Shown here one piece after another: positions 14,786 through 46,805 of a DNA stretch of 64,000 nucleotides (positions within the stretch are counted from its first letter, which is position 1; every line of letters begins with the position of its first letter). The stretch spans positions 61,841,516 through 61,905,515 of the forward strand of contig NC_081355.1 of assembly GCF_030684315.1 (NCBI RefSeq), written 5' to 3'. The stretch comes from Stegostoma tigrinum. Its lineage: Eukaryota. The notes beneath the pieces were generated by a model. The model did no database searches. It was not told where the DNA came from and saw nothing but the letters and a program-made list of their open reading frames with translations. Made by a program: the position numbers and the translations under genes.

Positions 14786-14981
14786 AAGATAATAAAATGT
14801 GAGGCTGGATGAACACAGCAGGCCAAGCAGCATCTCAGGAGCACAAAAGCTGACGTTTCGGGCCTAGACCCTTCATCAGAGAGCTTTTGTGCTCCTGAGA
14901 TGCTGCTCGGCCTGCTGTGTTCATCCAGCCTCACATTTTATTATCTTGGAATTCTCCAGCATCTGCAGTTCCCATTATCTC
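14786..14981 (+). mobile_element. PLE family A pLTR hairpin insertion (66-bp inverted arms around an HHR core)
   Basis: Arms 14786-14851 and 14882-14947 (1 mismatch); TSD taatatct[c/a]gtct at 14773-14785 and 14982-14994. Confidence 0.9.
14849..14882 (-). ncRNA. Minimal hammerhead ribozyme motif
   Basis: Minus strand: CU-CUGAUGA-A-GGGU(CUAG)GCCC-GAAAC-GUC^AGC; intact core, palindromic ACGU in place of stem III. Confidence 0.8.
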
Positions 14982-16245: not shown

Positions 16246-17105
16246 GATAACAAAGTGTGGAGCTGGATGAACACAGCAGGCCAAGCAGCATCTCAGGAGC
16301 ACAAAAGCTGACGTTTCGGGCCTAGACCCTTTATCAGAGAGGGGGACGGGGAGAGGAAACTGGAATAAATAGGGGGAGAGGGGGAGGCGGACCGAAGATG
16401 GAGAGAAAACAAGACAGGTAGAGAGGAGAGATCTCTGATGAAGGGTCTAGGCCCGAAACGTCAGCTTTTGTGCTCCTGAGATGCTGCTTGGCCTGCTGTG
16501 TTCATCCAGCCTCACATTTTATTATCTTGGAATCTCCAGCATCTGCAGTTCCCATTATCTCAGGTAGAGAGGAGAGTATAGGTGAGGAGGTAGGGAGGGG
16601 ATAGGTCAGTCCAGGGAAGATGGACAGGTCAAGGAGGGGGGATGAGGTGGTAGGTAGGAAATGGAGGTGCGGCTTGAGGTGGGAGGAAGGGATGGGTGAG
16701 GGGAAGGACAGGTTAGGGAAGCCGAAGCAGGCTGTCTCTGCTTCCCTAACCTGTTCTTCCTCTCACCCATCCCTTCCTCCCACCTCAAGCCGCACCTCCA
16801 TTTCCTACCTACCACCTCATCCCGCCTCCTTGACCTGTCCATCTTCCCTGGACTGACCTATCCCCTCCCTACCTCCTCACCTATATTCTCCTCTCTACCT
16901 GTCTTGTTTTCTCTCCATCTTCGGTCCGCCTCCCCCTCTCCCCCTATTTATTCCAGTTCCCTCTCCCCATCCCCCTCTCTGATAAAGGGTCTAGGCCCGA
17001 AACGTCAGCTTTTGTGGTCCTGAGATACTGCTTGGCCTGCTGTGTTCATCCAGCTCCACACTTAATTATCTTGGATTCTCCAGCATCTGCAGTTCCCATT
17101 ATCAC
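16246..17105 (+). mobile_element. PLE family A inverted-repeat insertion (~335-bp arms) with a nested solo pLTR
   Basis: TSD tcagacatttactga at 16231-16245 and 17106-17120; left arm 16244-16430 plus 16577-16723 is the reverse complement of 16738-17071. Confidence 0.9.
16431..16560 (+). mobile_element. Solo PLE pLTR with intact HHR motif (core 16435-16462)
   Basis: Own 16-bp TSD caggtagagaggagag at 16415-16430 and 16561-16576; reads CUGAUGA-AGGGUCUAGGCCC-GAAAC-GUC^. Confidence 0.88.
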
Positions 17106-25365: not shown

Positions 25366-27478
25366 ACATTGCAGGAACTCAACAGGTAAAGCAAAGCTAG
25401 AGGCAGCTAACCTTCTGACCACTGATAAAATAGAATGATTTAAATATGATAGTGTTTCTTTACCTAAATTAATTATGGTTTAAAGGACTTGTTCCACAAA
25501 TATGCTTTCAATGTTCTGGAACTGATTTCTAATACCTGAGTAGTTTATCCTTTGCTACCTTGGAGTTTCTGCCTTTAATGTGCACTTTCCAGCTGTTAAC
25601 ATTCATCTGTGCGCTTAGTGATACAGCTGTAACTTGGATCTCTAATGAGGACCAAAACAAGCAGCAGAAAACAATAACAGTTCTTCCTGAACCAACTACC
25701 ACTTTATAACATGTCACATGAACTGATACTCCTACCAGGGAGTATAATTGAGCACCACTGAGATTCAGGTGTCTCAGACATCCGAACAGGAGTTGCTGAT
25801 ATTTGCAGTCACAAAAATCACAGAATTGTTATGTAGCTGCAGGTGGCTACTTACCCGACGTATCTGCACTGACTCTTCAAATGAGCACGGATTGATGCCA
25901 TTTTTTTCTTTTTCTTCCTATAACCCTGCGCATGATTTCTATTTAAAATAATCATCTGAATACTTTCTTGAATGCCTTGATTCAATCTGTCTCCACTACA
26001 GTTCCAAGCAGTGTTTTTCAGACCTTAACCATTTGCTGTGATTTTTTTCCCTCAAATTTCAATTGCTTCTTTCCCAAATCACTGTAAATTTGTGAACTCT
26101 GCTCCCAACCATAAAATTATCTAGGATGAGTTTCTCTCATCTACTGTCCTGACAGCCACTGATTTAGAAAACTTCTATCAAATATTCTCTCCAAGGAAAA
26201 CAATCCCAACTTGACCAATCTATCTTTATAACTGAAGATTCTCATTCCTGGAGCCATTCTCATAGATCACATTCTCTCTAATCCGTACACATTTGTTTTG
26301 AAGTGTAGTGTCTAGAACTGTACACAATACTCTAACTGAGGTCTAACTTGTATTTTCTACAAGTTCAGCATAATCTTTTGGTCTTGCATTCCCCCTTATT
26401 GATGAAGCCTAAGATGCTGTATGCTTAATTAATTGCTCTCTCCACCTATTCTATTACCTTTAAATTATGCAGGAGTAGAGAAACCTGCGTACGTGCATAA
26501 ATCGTTAAAATAGTGTCCATTATTTTACGTGTCACTCCATGTACTTTCTACCAAAGTGAGTCACTTCACACTCGTCCATATTGAAAATGATTTGCCACTT
26601 ATCAGTCCATTCCAAACTGCCAATGTCCTTTTTAAGTATCTTCTCACAGTTTGCAATGCTTCAATGTTTTGTACTATCTACAACCTCTGAAACAATCCCC
26701 TGTGATCAACAAGGTCTAGATAATTTACATTTCAGGAAGAGCAAGGATCCCAATTCCAATCTGTGGGAAATTCCAATATAAACCTTGGTCCCATTTGGAA
26801 AAACATCCATTGACCATTAGTCTTTTTCAGAGCAATCATTTTTTAAATCTACATTGTTACTATCCCTTTTATTTCACAAGTTCTATAACTGCTCACACTT
26901 CTCTTCTGGGGTACTATATCAGACAGCTTTTGTAGTCCATGAACATTACAACACTATTACACTCATTAAACTCTCTGCTCTTCTTTCAGGAAGTTAAATA
27001 TGACTTCTTAAGAAATCCATACTCTCTTTAATTAACCCACACTTCTCCACATGATTATTAATTCCTATCCCAAATTATGGCTTCTGGAAGTTTTCCACCA
27101 AAGATAACTAACTGGTCTATAGTTACTGAGCTTATCCTTGCACACTTTTCTGTTCAAGGGTGCAATGTTTGCAATTCTCCAGCCAGTGCCTCCACAAGTT
27201 GCCGTAGTATCCTCAGATACATCGCATTCAATCCTATGCATTGTCAATTTTAAGTAGTTTATCAAATTCCTCCTTTCCTTTTGTCACCATGGTGTGGTAG
27301 TATCTATTTTATTGATAACTGCAATTGCAAAATATTCATTTGATGTTTCAGCCATGCCTCCTGCTTCCACATGGAAATCCCCCAGCAGTCCGAATTCTTC
27401 TATTTCTATCTTTTGACTACTTATGCGCCTATTGAAGATCTGGATGTGAGTTTGCTCACTGAGCTGGAAGGTTCGTTT

Positions 27479-27518
27479 TCAGACGTTTCGTCACCATTCT
27501 AGGTAACGTCATCAGTGA
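27479..27518 (-). ncRNA. Minimal hammerhead ribozyme motif (PLE family B)
   Basis: Minus strand: UCA-CUGAUGA-C-GUUACC(UAGAAU)GGUGAC-GAAAC-GUC^UGA; 6-bp stem II, 3-bp stem I. Confidence 0.85.
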
Positions 27519-28026
27519 GCCTCCAGTGAAGCACTGGTGTTACGTCCCACTTTCTATTTATCTGTTTAGGTTTCCTTGGGTTGGTGATGTCATTTCCTGT
27601 TCTTTTTCTCAGAGGGTGGTAGATGGGCTCCAAATCAATGTGTTTGTTGATGGAGTTCCGGTTGGAATGCCATGCTTCTAGGGATTCTCGTGCGTGTCTC
27701 TGTTTGGCTTGTCCTCATAGCCACAAAAAGACATGACCCACTATCACTCGTATCCTTACATACAGATGAGGAAGGACACCACTTTGATTGGGACAACACG
27801 TCCATCCTAGGACAAGCCAAACAGAGACACGCACAAGAATCCCCAGAAGCATGGCATTCCAACCGGAACTCCATCAACAAACACATTGATTTGGAGCCCA
27901 TCTACCACCCTCTGAGAAAAAGAACAGGAAATGACATCACCAATGCAGAAAATGACATCACCAACACAAGGAAACCTAAACAGATAAATAAAAAGCGGGA
28001 CATAACACCAGCGCTTCACCGGAGGC

Positions 28027-28066
28027 TCACTGATGATGTTACCTAGAATGGTGATGAAACGTCTGA
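28027..28066 (+). ncRNA. Minimal hammerhead ribozyme motif (PLE family B)
   Basis: UCA-CUGAUGA-U-GUUACC(UAGAAU)GGUGAU-GAAAC-GUC^UGA; this is the uninterrupted form of the Tx1 target. Confidence 0.85.
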
Positions 28067-28989
28067 AAACAAACGTTCCAGCTCAGCGAGCAAACTCACA
28101 TCCAGAACCTCAACCTCAACCTGAGCCATAAATCTTCTCAAAACTCGCTCGTGCCTATTGAAGACTTTGACAATTTTCTTTATGCCAATTATCAGTCACT
28201 TCCCCATCTCCCTTCAGCTATCCCTCTGTTCCATTTTGTTCTTAATAGTTTTTACTACCTGACACCGGTCACAAGCATACTTGTCACCTTAAACTTCTAA
28301 CTCGTGTATCATCTAGGCATTTCCAAATTTGTTACTGTATCTTCCCCTTGAGGGTATAGATCTTGACTGTGCCCTCTTCTCTTTGAAGGTAGATCAGTGT
28401 TCAGTTATAACTGCTCCTGGCAACGACTGGCTGTAATCAACCTGGCCTAACTCCATTCTTGCCCCCTGAAATCAGCTCTCCCTCACTTAATTGTTCTTTT
28501 CCATCTCCATTATAACCTTACGATAAAATGATCCCTACCGCTTAAAATGTTGCTCTCTGACATTTGATCTCCTTGGCCCACCTCATTCTTAATAGATCTA
28601 GCAATATTTCCTTTCTCATGAGCTAGACACATTCCACTGAAGAATTTTCTCCTGAACATAATCTAGGACACTTGCCCTTTGCACTACCACCATTCAATTT
28701 TTGTGAGGAGGGATGAGCAAAGTGTTTATGCAATTTCCTCTACTCATCAGCCAGACTATTATCTGCAGAGGTCAATAACATTTCTTGGACCTCTTGATGA
28801 GAATCTCCAGGTTTCCTCAAAGGGATAAAATAATGTCTGGAGCTTGTGCAAGTTTACTGCTTGACAAAATGTTTTATCATTCTCATTGCATTTTAACTTT
28901 AAACCTCACCTATTAAAGACTCACTCTGTAATAAAGGCATGTGACACTGGACAACATTGGTTCTTATAAAATCATACAGTCCTGCAATT

Positions 28990-39006: not shown

Positions 39007-39738
39007 TACCTGAAAACCACTAGCAACATCCTATTCACGCTCTTTTGATCTGATATTTCTCAAGCACACAAGAATCATTATTACAGCCACTATTTATAAA
39101 TTAAGGAAGATTAAGGAGATTCTTTTTGATTTTGAATCATATAGTGTGTGTGTAGCTGTATGTGCTTATGTTAAACAGGCTTACATTCCTGGCACAAAAT
39201 CATAAACAATTTAGTTTAGTCTTCTTAGAACTCTACATTGTTGAAGTTGGTCTTTTCAATTTTAAATCCCTCAACATGGTTCAGCACCAAAAAATCATTG
39301 AGACCAATGCGAGGTCAAAAATGAATGAACGCATGGTGGACAAATGGCCATAGTTTAATCTGTTATGGAGGGAATTCAAAGTTCCTTCATAATTATAACC
39401 CCAAGCTATTTTCCTCTTGATTTTCGTTGTGTCAGGAAGGCCTGTTGTGCAAAATACACTCCCCTAACCTCCCCACACCACTCCTAATTTGGGCTCCCTG
39501 TTTTAAATGGGGAACATAAATCAGGTTTCCTCTCACATGATTTTTGTCTACTAGTGCAAAATGTGAAAGTCCGTTTAAAGCACACCTGCTTGATAGCTTC
39601 CAGGGAATTTAGGGGCACTCTGCAAGGCTAGTGTAAAATGTTCTGCCACCTTCAAAGGTCTCGAATTGTTCAAAGATGTGTTTTTAACACTGGTCAGCAT
39701 TGTGTAATTGTTCAATTGCATGGCAGTATTTTCCCAAT

Positions 39739-40130
39739 GGACAAACAGGCAGAAAGCTAGCCACCAGGATAAATGAACATCAACTAGCCACAAAACGACA
39801 TGACCCACAATCACTCGTATTCTTACATACAGATGAGGAAGGACACCACTTTGATTGGGACAACACATCCATCCAAGGACAAGCCAAACAGAGACACGCA
39901 CAAGAATTCCTAGAAGCATGGCATTCCAACTGGAACTCCATCAACAAATACATTGGCTCCAAATCAGTCTACCATTCTCTGAGAAAAAGAACAGGAAATG
40001 ACATCACCAACATAGGAAATGACATCGCCAACCCAAGGAAACCTAAACAGATAAATAGAAAGTGGGACATAACACCAGTGCTTCATCAAAGGCTCACTGT
40101 TGATGTTACCTAGAATGGAGATGAAACGTC
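39739..40130 (+). mobile_element. PLE family B, 5' part (GIY-YIG C-terminus up to the HHR); host of the Tx1 insertion
   Basis: GQTGRKLATRINEH..HHFDWDNTSI..EFLEAWHS; collinear with 27720-28063. Confidence 0.9.
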
Positions 40131-40134
40131 TGGG
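40093..40134 (+). ncRNA. Hammerhead motif reconstituted at the PLE/Tx1 5' junction (core mutated in this copy)
   Basis: CUCA-CUGUUGA-U-GUUACC(UAGAAU)GGAGAU-GAAAC-GUC^UGGG; A-to-U change in CUGAUGA and one stem II mismatch; 4-bp stem I CUCA/UGGG. Confidence 0.6.
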
Positions 40135-40334
40135 AATGAACCTTCCCGCTCAGTGAACCAGCTTACATCCGGAACGCAATAAAGACCCACTCTTTTGTGG
40201 ACCAAGAAGAGGAGAGCACAACTGTGTTGGAGCTGGAAGAAAGCTGTCGGGTTGGCTGTGAACCCTTGCAACCAGTGGATCTTAATGCTAGCTTTGGCCT
40301 AACGCTGGTTCAGGGGAGCAGCCAACCTTCAACA

Positions 40335-41799
40335 ATGGCTGCGGCGAGTGCTCGTGCCCCGGGTCAGGGGGTCCGGAACACCATCCGCATTTCTGTGAAG
40401 AAGGTGGATGAAGGTGCACCTGTGGACCGCACCTTCTTTGTGAAGAGGGTCCTGTTGGACTGTTGCGGGTTTGCTGCTGTGGACATTTACTGCCTGCAGG
40501 ATTTCCCTGGAGGAGGTTTTTACGATGTAACCTTCAGGAGTGCCGAGCTTTGCGAGTGCTTCCTGGATGTTTTCAAGGAGAAAGGAGGTGAGGGCCCCCT
40601 CTCTGTATTGACCGCTGTCCCGCTGTTCGTGATGCCAGCGCAGTGGAGCCGTATGGTGACTGTACACATGTACAACCCGCATGTGCCAGCAGTTGATGTC
40701 CTGACCTTCCTTGGAGGGTACGTGAAGGTGGAAGGGGACCTAACCAACATTATGGACGCCTTCGGCATCTGGACCAGTAAGAGGCAGGTCAAGGTGATGC
40801 TGAGGATGGGCGCGGACGGGAACATTGTACACCCACCGTCCAGCTTCGCGCTTGGCGGGAGCAAGGGCTATCTGACCTACGCAGGGCAACCTAAAGTCTT
40901 CCATGCCTGTGGTAGGTCAGGTCACGTGGCGGCCGACTGCAAAGCCACCATCTGCAGGAACTGCAGGGAGGAGGGACACCTTGCAAAGGATTGCCCACAA
41001 GAGAAAAGCTGCAACCTTTGCAGGGAAGCGGGCCACCTTTATAGAGCATGCTCGCGGTGGGGGACGACCTACGCCCACGTCACCGGCAGGGGCAATGCGG
41101 GGCAAACCCCCCCGGAGGAGAGGAAGGCACCAGGGCCCTGCAAGGACCCCGCTAATGTGCAGGAAGGCCAGGTCGTGCAGGAGGGTCCAGCCCCGCAGGA
41201 TGGGCCCGAGGCCAGCAAAGCGCCCCTGCAGGCTCAGCTCCCCCGCCGACAACCTGGAGTCGATGGAGGCGGCAACAGGTGATCCAGGGGAGTGGACAAC
41301 AGTCCAGAATGCGAGGAGGAAGGCGCTCCAGTGGGCCCAGGCACCGCAACCATCAGGCGGGAAGAGGCAGCTACAGGGGGACTATAAGAGCTCCTCTGAC
41401 GAGGGAGATTCAGAGGATGCCCGCCCAAAGCAGAAGTTAAAGATCTCAAGGGAGAAGGAAAGCAGCACCCCGCTTCCAGGTGACGGGAGGCGTCCTGAGG
41501 CTCCCTCCGACACCCAGCCATGTGCCGCTGGAGCCCTGGAGGGGCCCCTGGAACTTCCAGGCGGGAAGGAGGAAACAGCGCGTCCCCAGCCTGACCCAGA
41601 GCCGGACTCTCCTGCCTCCGTACCCCCAACGGGGGGATGCCACCCGGAAGGCAGCATGGACGGTTTCCTGAGCCCGGAGAGCATCCAGCAGTTAGCCCGG
41701 GCAATGGGCATGAAGGGACAGATGGAGGGGCTGGGCCTTGGACTTGGGGAGGGCACTGCAGTCACTGCCCACAATGGGGGTACGAGTTGCGAACATTAA
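40335..41799 (+). pseudogene. Tx1 ORF1, ZCCHC3-like zinc-knuckle nucleic-acid-binding protein (one frameshift near 41240)
   Basis: ATG at 40335 (acaATGG); knuckles FHACGRSGHVAADC (first C lost), CRNCREEGHLAKDC and CNLCREAGHLYRAC; low-complexity tail continues in frame 40903..41799. Confidence 0.85.
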
Positions 41800-44700
41800 T
41801 GTGCGCAGCGTCAAGTCCACTGCAAGATGTGTGTCCACGTTGGCCTACCTGACCACCGTCAAGGTGGACCTCCTGTTTCTGCAGGAGTGCGGGATACCGC
41901 ACCTCGGCAGGTACGGGAATTGGTCCGGCACCTGGACCTGTGGGCCTTCGATCTGGTTGGGGAGTAACAACTGTCGCTCCTTGGGCCTGGCTATTCTGCT
42001 GCGGGGGCGCAACTTCACCATCACTCAAGTTCAGGAGGTGGTGGGGGGGACGCCTCCTAGTGGCTGATGTCACCTACAGGAACGATCCCCTGATCAATGT
42101 GTATGCCCCAGCGGTACGGAGGGAGCGGGTGGCCGTCCCGCAGCGGCCTCCACCCCTGCTGGCTACGTCCAGGCCGGTCATCCTAGGCGGAGACTTCAAC
42201 TGCATCATTGATGCAGATGGAAGATCCGGCGTGGGGACAGCGGATGGGGGGAGTCAACTGGACGTCACGTCCAGATTCCTGATGGGCACCGTGAAGGATG
42301 CCAAGCTGCTCGATGTCTTCAGCACCCCTGCAGACTGAGCGCAGCGGAGATACACCTGATCGCTGCCAGACGGGTCTATCTGCTCAAGGATAGACTTCCT
42401 GTTTGTGTCACGGGCGTTCTCGGTCAGGTCCACCGGCGTCGAGCCGGTGTTCTTCTCTGACCACTGCCTCCTGCTGGCCGACTGTCACTTACAGGATGAC
42501 CAGCAGGCCGGCAAGGGGAGGTGGAAGCTCGACACGACTCTGTTGACCCCAGAGAACGTCGAGGAGCTTAAGAGGGAGTACGCCAGTTGGAGAACCGTGA
42601 AATCCCTCTTTGAGTCTCTGGGCGACTGATGGGAGACGGTGAAGGAGAACATCAAGAGGTTCTTTTTCCTCAAGGGTGTTCGGAAGGCGAGACAGAGGAG
42701 GGGAAAGCTGTCGCGACTCCAGAAAAGGGTGCAGAACCTGCTCCTTCTGCAGTTGATGGGGGTCGATGTCACGGAGGACCTCCGCGAGGTGAGGGGCCAG
42801 CGAGCCTCGTTCTTCGCCGCGGAGGCCTCCAGGATAATTTTCCGGTCCAGGGTCCACTCCGTGGAGCAGGACGAGACTTGCTCGCGTTTCTTCTTTCAGA
42901 AGGTGCACAAAGAGAGCTCTGTGCTTAGCTGGCTGAAGGAGGACGACGGCTCGGTGACGTTATCTTGGCTCGACATTTTGAGGATCAGCAGATCCTTATG
43001 CCGGACTGTACGACGCGAAGCCCACGGAGAGCACGGCCTCTGAGTCGTTCCTGTCATCTATCACGGAGGTCTTAGATGACGGCACAAGGGAGTGGCTGGA
43101 CCGGCCGACATCCCTGGACGAGCTGACCAGAGCCCTCAAGCCCTTGGAGAGGAATAAGACTCCCGGGAGCGACGGCTTACCGGTTGAGCTGTATTCCGCT
43201 CTGTGGGACCTGGTCGGCCAGGACCTGCTGGAGGTGTACGCTAGTGCGCTTCGGGCAGGGGAAATGTGCAAGTCCACGAGGAAGGGTATCATCACCCTCA
43301 TTTACAAGAGGAAGGGGGAGAGGGAAGAAATTAAGAATTGGCGTCCCATTTCACTATTGAACGTGCACTACAAAATCCTGGCCAAGGTCATAGCCAACCA
43401 GGTCAGGTCTGTCCTGGAGTCGGTGATTCACCCTGACCAAACCTGTGCTGTGCCGGGCAGGAAGATCGCTGAGAGCCTCGCGCTCATCAGGGATACGATC
43501 GCCTAGGTGCAGGACAGGCGGGTGGACACCTGCCCCGTCAGCCTGGACCAGGAGAAGGCCTTCGAAAGGGTCTCTCATGCTTACATGAGGGACGTCCTCT
43601 CCAAATTGGGGTTCGGGGAGGGCATCCGCAATTGGATCCGGCTGCTCTACACCAACATCGTTAGCGCAGTCTCAATCAACGGGTGGGAATCGGACAGTTT
43701 CCCCGTCAGATCTGGAGTCAGGCAGGGTTGCCCACTCTCTACTGCCTTGTTCGTGTGCTGTGTGGAGCCGTTCGCCGCATCCATCAGGAAGGACGTGAGC
43801 CTGAAGGGCGTGACTATCCCAGGCAGCGGAGGCCTTCAGGTCAATACCTCCCTGTACATGGACGATGTCGCCATCTTCTACACCGATCGTCGGTGGGTGA
43901 GTAGGCTGTTGGACATCTGTGGCCAGTTTTAACTGGCCTCGGGTGCCAAAGTCAATAGGGTTAAGAGCGAGGCCATGTTCTTCAGGAACTGGGACGACCG
44001 CTGCTTCATCCCCTTCACCGTAAGGACAGACTACTTGAAGGTGCTAGGTGTTTGGTTCGGTGGAGCTGGGGCGTGCACTAAGACTTGGGAGGAGCGTATC
44101 ACCAAACTGAAGCAGAAGCTGGGCAGGTGGATGCTCCGGTCCCTCTCCATCGCGGGTAAGAACCTGGTTGTCAGGTGCGAGGGGCTTTCGGTACTGTTGT
44201 ATTTGGAGCAGGCCTGGCCTATTCCGTGGACCTGCGCCGCTGCGGTCACCCGGGCCATCTTCCACTTCATTTGGGGGTCGAGGATGGACCGGGTCCGCAG
44301 GGACACCATGTACAAAGACCTGGAAAATGGGGGAAAGGGCGTACCGAACGCCACCCTCGCCCTGATGGCTACCTTTGTGTGCGGCTGTATCAAGTTGTGC
44401 ATAGATCCTCAGTACGCAAACACCAAGTGTCACTACTTAATGAGGTTCTACCTGTCCCCGGTGTTGTGAAGGATGGGCCTGGCCTCGTTGCCGCGGAACA
44501 CTCCGAGTAGTTGGACCGTCCCGTACCACCTGTCCTTCGTGCAGAAATTTTTGAAGGGAAACACCTTTGACCACAAGGCCGTCAGGCAGTGGTCAGCACG
44601 TAGTATCCTCGAGACCCTTTGGGAAAAGGGGAGGGTGGATCCTGTCGTGTGGTTCCCCACACAGACTGCCAAAATCGTTTGGCAGAATGCCTCATCGCCA

Positions 44701-45186
44701 GAACTTTCAAACAAGCACAAGGACATTGCTTGGCTGGCGGTGAGAGGGGCTCTGCCTGTGAGATCCTTTATGCATGCACGGAATCTCTGCGCCACCGCAC
44801 GCTGCCCTTGAGGTGGCTGCGGGAGGGACGAGACTGTCGATCACCTCCTTCTGGAGTGTGCCTATGCGCAGGAGGTCTGGAGGGGGATGCAGTAGTATTT
44901 GTCGAGGTTCGTCCCGATTAGCTCCGTGACGCGGGACTCCGTGCTCTATGGGCTGTTTCCCGGGACGCACACTGAGACCAACATCAACTGCGCCTGGAGG
45001 ACCATCAATGCGGTGAAAGAAGCTCTTTGGTCTGCCCGCAACTTGCTGGTCTGCCAGCTGAAAGAACTGACCCCGACCGAATGTTGCAGACTGGCGCACT
45101 CCAAGGTCCAGGACTACGTGCTGAGGGACACGCTAAAGCTTGTGGCAGCTGCCGCCAAGACGCGGTGGGGAACGACCACTGTATGA
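41774..45186 (+). pseudogene. Tx1 ORF2: AP endonuclease, reverse transcriptase and C-terminal zinc finger (several stops and frameshifts)
   Basis: NINVRS, LFLQEC, INVYAP, GGDFNC, SDHC (APE); KTPGSDGLPVE, NWRPISLLN, GVRQGCPLS, YMDD at 43855-43866 (RT); CP.GGCGRDETVDHLLLEC (Zn finger). Confidence 0.93.
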
Positions 45187-45470
45187 AACCCCTCGTCCAG
45201 AATAGAAAAAAGGGCCCTTTCTGGTAACTGGGCCCAGCTGGCGCCTTCCCCAACTGGTCAGGAGGCCAACTCGGACTGTGCATGGTGACGACTGCCAGGG
45301 CATTTTCTTTGCTTTGTTTCTTTTTTCTCTTCTTTGTTTGTTTTTTTCCTTTAGTTGGTGTACGTACTTCCTGGGTAACCCGGAGCGGCTTGCATGACTG
45401 GGTAGGTGTACAAATATGTTTTTTTTTGTACATCTTATGAATAAAGCATATTTTTTCAAATAAAACAAAA

Positions 45471-45564
45471 GGTGACGAAACGTCTGAAAACTAACCTTCC
45501 AGCTCAGCGAGCAAACTCACATCCAGAACCTCAACCTGAGCTACAAATCTTCTCAAAACTCGCT
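45471..45564 (+). mobile_element. PLE family B pLTR, 3' remainder downstream of Tx1
   Basis: ggtgacgaaacgtctgaaaa..caaaactcgct continues 40116 exactly as in the empty copy at 28050-28149. Confidence 0.93.
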
Positions 45565-46805
45565 AAAGGGAGGTGATGCATAACAAATCTGGTAGAATGT
45601 TTTCAGGAGATGACCAAGTGTTTGAAATGAGGGTAGGGCACTTGATGTAAGTTTCGTGGATTTCAGCAAGACGTTTGACAAGGTCAGACATGAGAAACCA
45701 ATAAAGAAGATATAAGCTCATGGTAATCAAGGTAACTTGGCAAGATGGGTGCTAAATTGGCTTAGTGATAGGACACAGAGGGTGTGGTAGAAGCTGTTTG
45801 TGTGACTGGAGCCCAGTGTGCAGTGGCTTAACATGGGGATCATTGCTAGGTCTCTCTGTTGTTAATGATATTCACAAATGATGTAGCTGAGAATGTAAAA
45901 GGGATGTTAAGTAAGTTAGTGGATGACATAAAGATTGGCCAGGTGGTTAACAGAAAGAAAAAAGGTATTAGGTTATGGGATGATATGCCAGATGGGCAAA
46001 TCAGTGGCAGAAGGAATTTAATCCTGATAAAAATGAGGTGATGCACTTTTGAAGAGGGAACAAGACAAGGAAACGTCCACGGAATGAGAAGACACTAGCA
46101 GCCTAGAGGGACAGTGATGTCTTGGAGTGTTTGTCCACAGATCCCTTAAGGAGGCAGGGCAGATTAATACAGTAGTTAAGAAGGCATATGAGATGCTTGC
46201 CTTCATCAATCATGACACAGACTGTAAGAGCAAGGAAGGCATGTTGGAGCTGTACAGAGCTTTGGATAGGCCAAAGCTGGAGTACTGTGTGCAGTTCTGG
46301 TCACCACACTATAGGAAGGAGGGGCTACATGGGAAGGGTTGGAAACAAGACTCACTGGGATGTGCCTGGGATGGAGCATTTCAGCTATGAAGAAAGGCTG
46401 GATAACTTCAGGTTGTTTTCTTTGGAGCAGAGAAGATTTGGGTGGAAACTGAGGGAGGTGTATAAGGTTAGAGCAGCATGGACAGGGTGACTAGAAAGCA
46501 GCTTTTCCCCTTAGTCATTAACATGGGTGAATAATTGTAAAGTGCATGGGAGAAGGTTTAGAGGGGATTTGAGGAAAACCTTTATCACCTCAAGGTTCGC
46601 GGGAATGTGGAATACATTGCTTCGGAGGGTAGTTGAGGCAGGAAACCTCACAACCTTTAAAAAATAATAGGGAGAGCACTGTTATAACATTCAAGAATAT
46701 GGGCATAGTGTGGGAAAATGTGATGAGATAGGTAGTAATAATTTTCGGGCAGTGCAGTGTTGGTGGGCTGAAGGGCCTCTTCTGTACTGTATGATTCTAT
46801 GATCC
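45565..46805 (+). mobile_element. 5'-truncated CR1 LINE
   Basis: SKLVDDIKIG, LELYRALDRPKLEYCVQFWSPHY; tail tatgattctatgat. Confidence 0.88.

Follow-up and report, generated by a model that had tools for sequence, protein, structure and literature searches.

Target-specific LINEs of the Tx1 clade are known to insert into other transposons. Those described in PMC4494074 include Xenopus Tx1L, residing in Tx1D, the crocodilian elements Tx1-Mar, Tx1-8_Crp and Tx1-9_AMi, and Keno, Kibi and Koshi. These elements have a CCHC-containing ORF1, an ORF2 with an APE endonuclease and a reverse transcriptase (RT), and an A-rich tail, and are likely to rely on a promoter in the repeat that flanks them. A different organization is seen in the R2 elements (PMC3774820), which combine a restriction-like endonuclease with an active HDV-like ribozyme that makes the 5' end. 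In R2 elements whose RNA retains upstream 28S sequence, for which heteroduplex priming has been proposed, a read-through transcript with a target-derived 5' end goes along with uniform junctions and inherited junction variants. Likewise, the earwig R2 transmits a 22-bp downstream duplication with 3 substitutions (PMC3774820).

A third relevant system is provided by the Penelope-like elements (PLEs). In the anole Poseidon-type PLE, PAc (PMC11167929), and in minimal PLE hammerheads (PMC4209133), the ORF starts at stem II, an extra base is present between A9 and stem II, and a palindromic ACGU replaces stem III. PAc additionally unites GIY-YIG and RT domains and displays two tail ends. Minimal hammerheads cut poorly in the absence of a partner or protein (PMC4209133, PMC11167929), and that of the anole PLE requires its protein for cutting while being dispensable for insertion in vitro (PMC11167929).

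We investigated a stretch of 64,000 nucleotides from Stegostoma tigrinum, hereinafter the window, in which a LINE sharing the above features of the target-specific Tx1 elements interrupts a PLE sharing those of PAc and the minimal-hammerhead PLEs. The latter are counterparts of the host element and not of the inserted LINE, and the available text of both reports mentions no LINE insertion. Unlike the Tx1 LINEs presented in the available portion of PMC4494074, this LINE targets the hammerhead and start-codon region of a PLE, has a duplication that is inherited and diverged instead of being copied from each target, and carries a damaged ribozyme. We consider it probable that the LINE inserts at one site in the PLE hammerhead, inherits a lesioned, PLE-derived front end, uses an uncut RNA made from the PLE promoter and completes its insertion by annealing of the cDNA to the target.

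The window locus and its target

Positions are numbered relative to the junctions, with 0 being window position 40117 at the 5' junction and 45471 at the 3' junction; all parts of the locus lie on the + strand. The upstream arm of the target PLE (39735..40116), delimited by BLAST against a near-complete natural PLE copy (L330), is 5'-truncated and consists of the end of the GIY-YIG region and the terminal repeat as far as the insertion site, with its last ~20-30 nt likely replaced by element-borne sequence. It is followed by the PLE-derived leader (40117..40175, +0 to +58), a pseudo target-site duplication (TSD), and by the remaining, LINE-specific 5' UTR (40176..40334), the first motif of which has 3,022 exact matches in the 3.2-Gb genome. 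ORF1 (40335..41799) codes for ZCCHC3-like RNA-binding domains and CCHC knuckles (Pfam RBD_ZCCHC3 and zf-CCHC), and ORF2 (41774..45186) for an APE-type endonuclease, an RT and a zinc-binding domain (Exo_endo_phos, RVT_1 and zf-RVT). Both are broken in the window copy, ORF1 by a stop at 41280-41282 with the rest in a different frame, and ORF2 by frameshifts near 42047 and 42997 and several stops; both are open in younger copies, which show 96-98% identity among themselves and about 92% to the window copy. The 3' UTR, with an AATAAA and a short A-rich tail (45187..45470), has an end shared by 2,289 exact matches, and borders on the downstream PLE arm (45471..45565), which is true target sequence reaching the PLE tail end at +94. 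The insert between the two 59-nt copies measures 5.3 kb. Among named proteins, the LINE comes closest to an RT of Takifugu (BAD04856, 36%) and to a Xenopus protein (45% over 41%), and we call it Tx1-like on the basis of structure and targeting rather than of a tree.

The target PLE has one ORF between terminal repeats (a repeat-ORF-repeat unit of about 2.5 kb in L330), in which RVT_1 is detected above the Pfam cut-off and GIY-YIG at E=0.002, below the cut-off. Its terminal repeat contains a minimal hammerhead of the kind described in PMC4209133, and the ORF begins within this hammerhead, with ATGs at -17 and -14 and a further in-frame ATG at -2. In the window, the type I remnant of the same architecture (40088..40145) comprises a CUGUUGA core (40097-40103), stem II (40105-40110 with 40117-40122, helix region 40105-40122), GAAAC-GUC (40123-40130) and stem I, where 40088-40096 pairs with 40131-40134 and 40141-40145. 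Cleavage is predicted after 40130, i.e. between +13 and +14. The window copy is damaged in stem II and at A6, where CUGAUGA is replaced by CUGUUGA (A6U, at 40100). The motif was identified by inspection: an Rfam scan of the window gave no hammerhead match, and unconstrained folding of monomers and dimers, which appears uninformative on hammerhead activity, returned the active fold for no copy, the PLE included. The 59-nt arrangement is not due to chance, being present at all 30 loci fetched with the leader.

The alignments behind the original prediction were reproduced. Positions 40117-40175 match 45471-45529 without gaps at 46 of 59 positions, with mismatches unevenly spread (the first 16 nt contain 2, the 43 nt after them 11), while the downstream copy matches the PLE at 28050 at 56/59 and the 59 nt upstream of the insertion match the same PLE at 52/59. 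An uninterrupted, independent head-to-head PLE pair with two intact-core hammerheads (27432..28149, given without strand) was available as a comparison copy in the window.

Several features of the PLEs and of the window were observed in passing. Arm ends lie near +53 to +61 and +92 to +94 in 12 of 13 head-to-head PLE pairs (L007, L012, L043 and L101, for example) and at +68/+94 in the thirteenth, as though the two start sites of reverse transcription were each used once per insertion. Opposite arms of L050/L204 and of L032/L096 have private variants in common, which suggests gene conversion between inverted arms. Among the long PLE copies (L305-L334), the LINE is found in 8 of 26 3' hammerheads, one of these being the query's own locus. 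A second short repeat family in the window, at 14879 and 38879 on the - strand and 16435 and 35075 on the + strand, has a minimal hammerhead motif of its own, with an extra base before stem II and inverted arrangements, and is possibly a non-autonomous PLE-type element. A near-perfect 170-bp palindrome at 16561-16901 is the source of spurious microRNA matches in Rfam (16.6-16.8 kb).

The LINE family has a target-sequence preference for one site in the PLE hammerhead. Each of the 30 3' ends fetched abuts (G)GTGAC/TGAC, which belongs to a PLE in 27 cases and to an earlier LINE leader in 3. On one contig, C1, 84 of 85 leaders taken in order start with the PLE-derived segment; PLE sequence lies upstream of 74, and 10 stand behind another LINE copy as tandem insertions. 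The same picture could be proposed to arise without repeated targeting, if a composite PLE::LINE unit were spread by the PLE RT, and head-to-head, 5'-truncated LINE arms that each end in a PLE tail (5 of 20 regions), as well as sister arms also occupied by the LINE (12 of 38), are in keeping with this. However, doubly occupied arms often hold different LINE subfamilies, tail lengths and nick variants are not constant from copy to copy or from arm to arm, 10/85 leaders are tandem insertions into an earlier one, and most LINE copies are full length though free PLE copies are short. Furthermore, loci differ in how much PLE lies upstream of the LINE, and in 12 of 13 head-to-head pairs the PLE piece on the 3' side agrees with the free arm of its own pair (permutation p=0.0015). 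Hence, the targets are independent, and it is very unlikely that the PLE enzyme spread a composite.

Inheritance of the leader and of the core lesions

The diverged 45 nt of the leader had been taken for the element's own sequence, derived from a PLE and common to its copies, and this is borne out at all 30 top loci and by the contig C1 series (84/85). The diverged leader is neither confined to the window locus nor that of any common PLE subfamily; at ten positions lying between +16 and +54, most of some 106 junctions have a base other than that of the PLE. The loci fetched included no LINE-type leader lacking a LINE body.

The preceding 14 nt, in contrast, do not track the local target as a normal TSD would. 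For comparison of the 5' and 3' copies 60 loci were fetched, of which 7 were without a 3' tail and 6 more could not be parsed, leaving 47. GAAAC>GATT is present in 8 of these 47 5' copies and in none of the 47 matching 3' copies, and ACAT is present in 22 5' copies and 11 3' copies but common to both at only 5 loci. By hand count, ACAT and AATG number about 73 and 1 among 100 of the listed junctions, against 9 and 11 among 100 of the listed free PLE sites. CpG decay was considered as the cause of the ACAT excess and rejected, as it would affect both ends symmetrically. The 12-mers at the 5' and 3' ends differ in lineage alleles such as GATT, contrary to a TSD copied from each target, and a true duplication, if present, is usually shorter than about 11 nt and concealed in homology. 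As TSDs are variable among non-LTR elements (PMC4494074), the absence of a copied one does not exclude membership of the Tx1 clade. In a few junctions (L057, L103, L208 and L287) target alleles reach +21 to +37; thus, the switch point varies.

The CUGUUGA core had been regarded as a private decay of the window copy, in a model in which the target supplies the core. It is instead a family allele, with 881 exact genome matches as against 12,688 for CUGAUGA; among the first 30 loci listed for each, 29 of the CUGUUGA loci and 1 of the CUGAUGA loci continue into the LINE. Nor does the target reliably supply the core, since A6U, located 17 nt upstream of the insertion site and 30 nt upstream of the predicted cut site, comes with the element. 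Sister arms of the same PLE pair were compared in a set of 44 pairs, 14 of which had been chosen by A6U: at -17 the derived base is on the LINE side in 23 of 43 pairs and on the free arm in 1, and in pairs not chosen by A6U (n=25) the corresponding counts are 11 and 0. From +5 to +13, 68 derived bases fall on the LINE side and 21 on the free arm. In a separate sample, that of the long PLE copies, A6U is seen in 5/8 LINE-bearing sites and 1/18 free sites. Similarly, G16.2A is found in 57/106 LINE junctions versus 10/88 free PLE sites.

An intact hammerhead core is retained by 180/1,780 LINE junctions versus 8,244/12,814 free PLE sites, a contrast (10% versus 64%) that is inflated by the greater age of LINE-bearing PLEs relative to the average free PLE. 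In age-matched arms the figures are 1/25 on the LINE side and 10/25 on the free side, and in the fetched unbiased junction set 4/71 cores are intact, in contrast to the intact ribozyme of the R2 type. A complete hammerhead is thus rarely rebuilt upon insertion. The original prediction had each insertion rebuilding an active hammerhead, whose cut at 40130/40131 sets the element RNA's 5' end. In line with it, the leader is element-borne, 180 junctions are intact and the AA>GG change (UGGG) permits a proximal stem I of 4 bp, versus 3 bp in the PLE, with a constrained fold of -13.6 kcal/mol versus -10.8 for the PLE. Yet A6U, G12A, GATT and G16.2A are inherited, which is impossible from an RNA cut after +13; moreover, AA>GG represents two common transitions, and the youngest lineages break distal stem I too. 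Such cutting, which may concern a minority or an ancestor at most, is very unlikely as the general course. What survives of the prediction is the diverged, shared leader captured from a PLE, while the TSD split, the target-supplied core and the rebuilt ribozyme do not.

Element-borne alleles span at least -17 to +58, across +13/+14. Given that a cut RNA could not carry the base at -17, the template RNA would span the predicted cut site uncut. That this RNA is uncut and homology-bearing is well supported, and we hold it with high confidence. Among sites upstream of the nick, A6U alone is strongly linked to the element. Alleles upstream of -17 mostly follow the target, and no clear element-borne signal was found there, only -70 (8 versus 1 in the sister arms, unlinked to A6U); the enrichments at -70, -38, -32 and -31 may reflect older targets.

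A few LINE-free PLE sites (L051, L318, L236 and the sister arm of L017) show the LINE-type lesions A6U or GGATT, possibly as traces of aborted insertion or gene conversion.

Transcription, reading frame and joining of the 5' end

The LINE lands in codon 6 of the PLE ORF. From the position of the PLE start codons at -17, -14 and -2, the PLE promoter must presumably lie upstream of the insertion site, and transcription of the LINE would begin there, in PLE sequence, as read-through from that promoter. A T at +37, a CpG site, changes CGA to the stop codon TGA (40154..40156, + strand) and closes the captured start of the PLE frame; it is present in 105/106 LINE junctions versus 15/88 free PLE sites. 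The near-fixed stop, which would cut the PLE frame down to a small upstream ORF, seems to fit read-through transcription, yet is a common mutation.

In some young leaders (L245 and L246) the frame of ORF1 is open across the whole leader, and the lineage variants in this frame look mostly non-synonymous by eye. Tandem GGAAATGACATCA units occur at window 40002-40033, and at -110..-85 in other loci. They sit at the distance below which PLE arms escape use as targets, and resemble what we take to be candidate promoter motifs of the ETS/CRE type.

Most insertions appear to be full length. Among the LINE 3' ends of contig C1 (n=87), 61 are paired with a leader by position and 7 more were complete when fetched, amounting to 68/87. 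Of the other 19, the 15 that were examined comprise 12 at the centre of head-to-head structures lacking the middle, which are likely to be later deletions, and 3 joined to unrelated DNA; no classic truncated copy with a TSD was seen among the 22 partnerless 3' ends examined on this contig. Two LINE copies lie head to head with the middle missing at L288, L291, L292, L299 and L300, and these are likely deletions in long palindromes formed when both PLE arms were hit.

Fewer than 100 nt of upstream PLE are present at 2/139 LINE junctions versus 24/89 comparison PLE arms, three of the 24 being without alignment. This suggests that homology or a promoter-bound target is required upstream; short homology does not account for a need of about 90-100 nt. 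The upstream PLE lengths show no pile-up marking a fixed RNA start.

These results can be accommodated in the following scheme. The 3' junctions put the first nick at AAT|GGTGAC, to within about 1 nt, and the alleles brought by the RNA copied there show it to be uncut at +13/+14. The heteroduplex of cDNA and target may then be resolved at variable points, with target sequence replacing the -17 lesion in about half of insertions and occasionally extending to between +21 and +37. Dependence of the joining step on homology would make most insertions full length. In the least certain step, source copies with a dead ribozyme would be favoured, since a cut RNA would lose its cap and its upstream homology.

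Lineage history and the fate of the ribozyme

The lesions differ in standing. G12A is an established inactivating change of hammerheads (PMC13481778), while A6U, GATT and loss of the ACGU palindrome are likely to be inactivating, judging from how the core is conserved and from the dimer model (PMC4209133), as well as from general background on hammerheads. A tree built on 1 kb of internal sequence from 132 copies, each having 900 or more aligned bases, is weakly supported (stars on 13 of the 129 inner branches) and suggests a ladder of older copies with GGATT, then the lineage of the window copy, then younger lineages. The window's lineage has an intact GAAACGUC and A6U in 12/23 copies, with no other lesion. 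In the younger lineages G16.2A is nearly fixed, A6U is present in about 40% and distal stem I is broken, as CCGGCAAG and CCTTACAG in the youngest. A6U recurs in every lineage of the tree and is rare (2/12) in the GGATT lineage. Its frequency differs by lineage (32/57 for TGATT versus 8/35 for GGATT, p=0.002), in keeping with its being inherited and not arising at every insertion; its being made anew each time by a non-templated base is accordingly disfavoured. Copies with an intact core are scattered in the tree and form no clade.

Whether the dead ribozyme was selected is a separate matter, on which we would place about an even bet, or somewhat better. A6U could persist unselected in a small number of long-lived source loci, minimal hammerheads cut so poorly alone that pressure to disable them may be small, and about 10% of junctions keep an intact core. 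Furthermore, the density of lesions in the core at +6..+11 does not clearly exceed that of the non-core leader changes, so that relaxed constraint explains them as well as selection does. One may therefore envisage the same uncut read-through RNA and homology-dependent joining with lesions that are neutral in few long-lived sources, the hammerhead being irrelevant. The many non-core changes of the leader, the CpG transitions among the lesions, the ladder-like tree and the behaviour of the anole hammerhead noted above (PMC11167929) all agree with such neutral decay. What it leaves poorly explained is A6U, the sole strongly linked upstream site, which is overwritten in about half of insertions and yet is found in all lineages, is commonest (12/23) in the lineage without other lesions and rare (2/12) with GGATT; the scattered distribution of intact cores is equally unexpected. 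We regard neutral decay as unlikely, albeit deserving of some weight.

A6U and the +37 stop might alternatively have been favoured for initiation of ORF1 translation and not against cleavage. A6U removes the first PLE ATG (-17) and weakens the context of the second (-14), and the +37 stop is in 105/106 junctions. However, nearly all copies keep the in-frame ATG at -2, the context of which is strong (A at -3, G at +4), the lesions at +6..+11 touch no start codon, and an uncut RNA would still be required. This makes a purely translational origin improbable.

Returning to the insertion model favoured here, the LINE appears to share with the 28S-retaining R2 elements (PMC3774820) a read-through transcript, a target-derived RNA 5' end, uniform junctions and inherited junction variants. 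It differs in that its ribozyme is the hammerhead of the target, mutated in about 90% of junctions. No Tx1 family targeting PLE hammerheads was found in the literature searched, a prior Repbase or Dfam entry being possible, and the words 'Tx1' and 'shark' are absent from the available text of a 2026 retrozyme preprint. The features likely to be new are a disabled ribozyme passed on by inheritance, the closure of the host frame and the prevalence of full-length insertion.

The family offers population-scale evidence on 5' joining by an APE-endonuclease LINE, a poorly understood step, and an example of a LINE family in which most insertions are full length. It also carries a warning that long diverged 'TSDs' can be inherited leaders. 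A site-specific LINE completed by homology is relevant to gene-insertion tools. Selection of the lesions, if it occurred, would imply that minimal PLE hammerheads work in the germ line, in vivo, an activity not shown in the available text of PMC4209133 and PMC11167929. Tentatively, and at somewhat less than even chances, we suggest that a hyper-parasitic LINE, inserting almost solely as full-length copies joined through homology, may have repeatedly evolved to disarm the ribozyme of its host element, close its frame and take its promoter, which would amount to an arms race in catalytic RNA.
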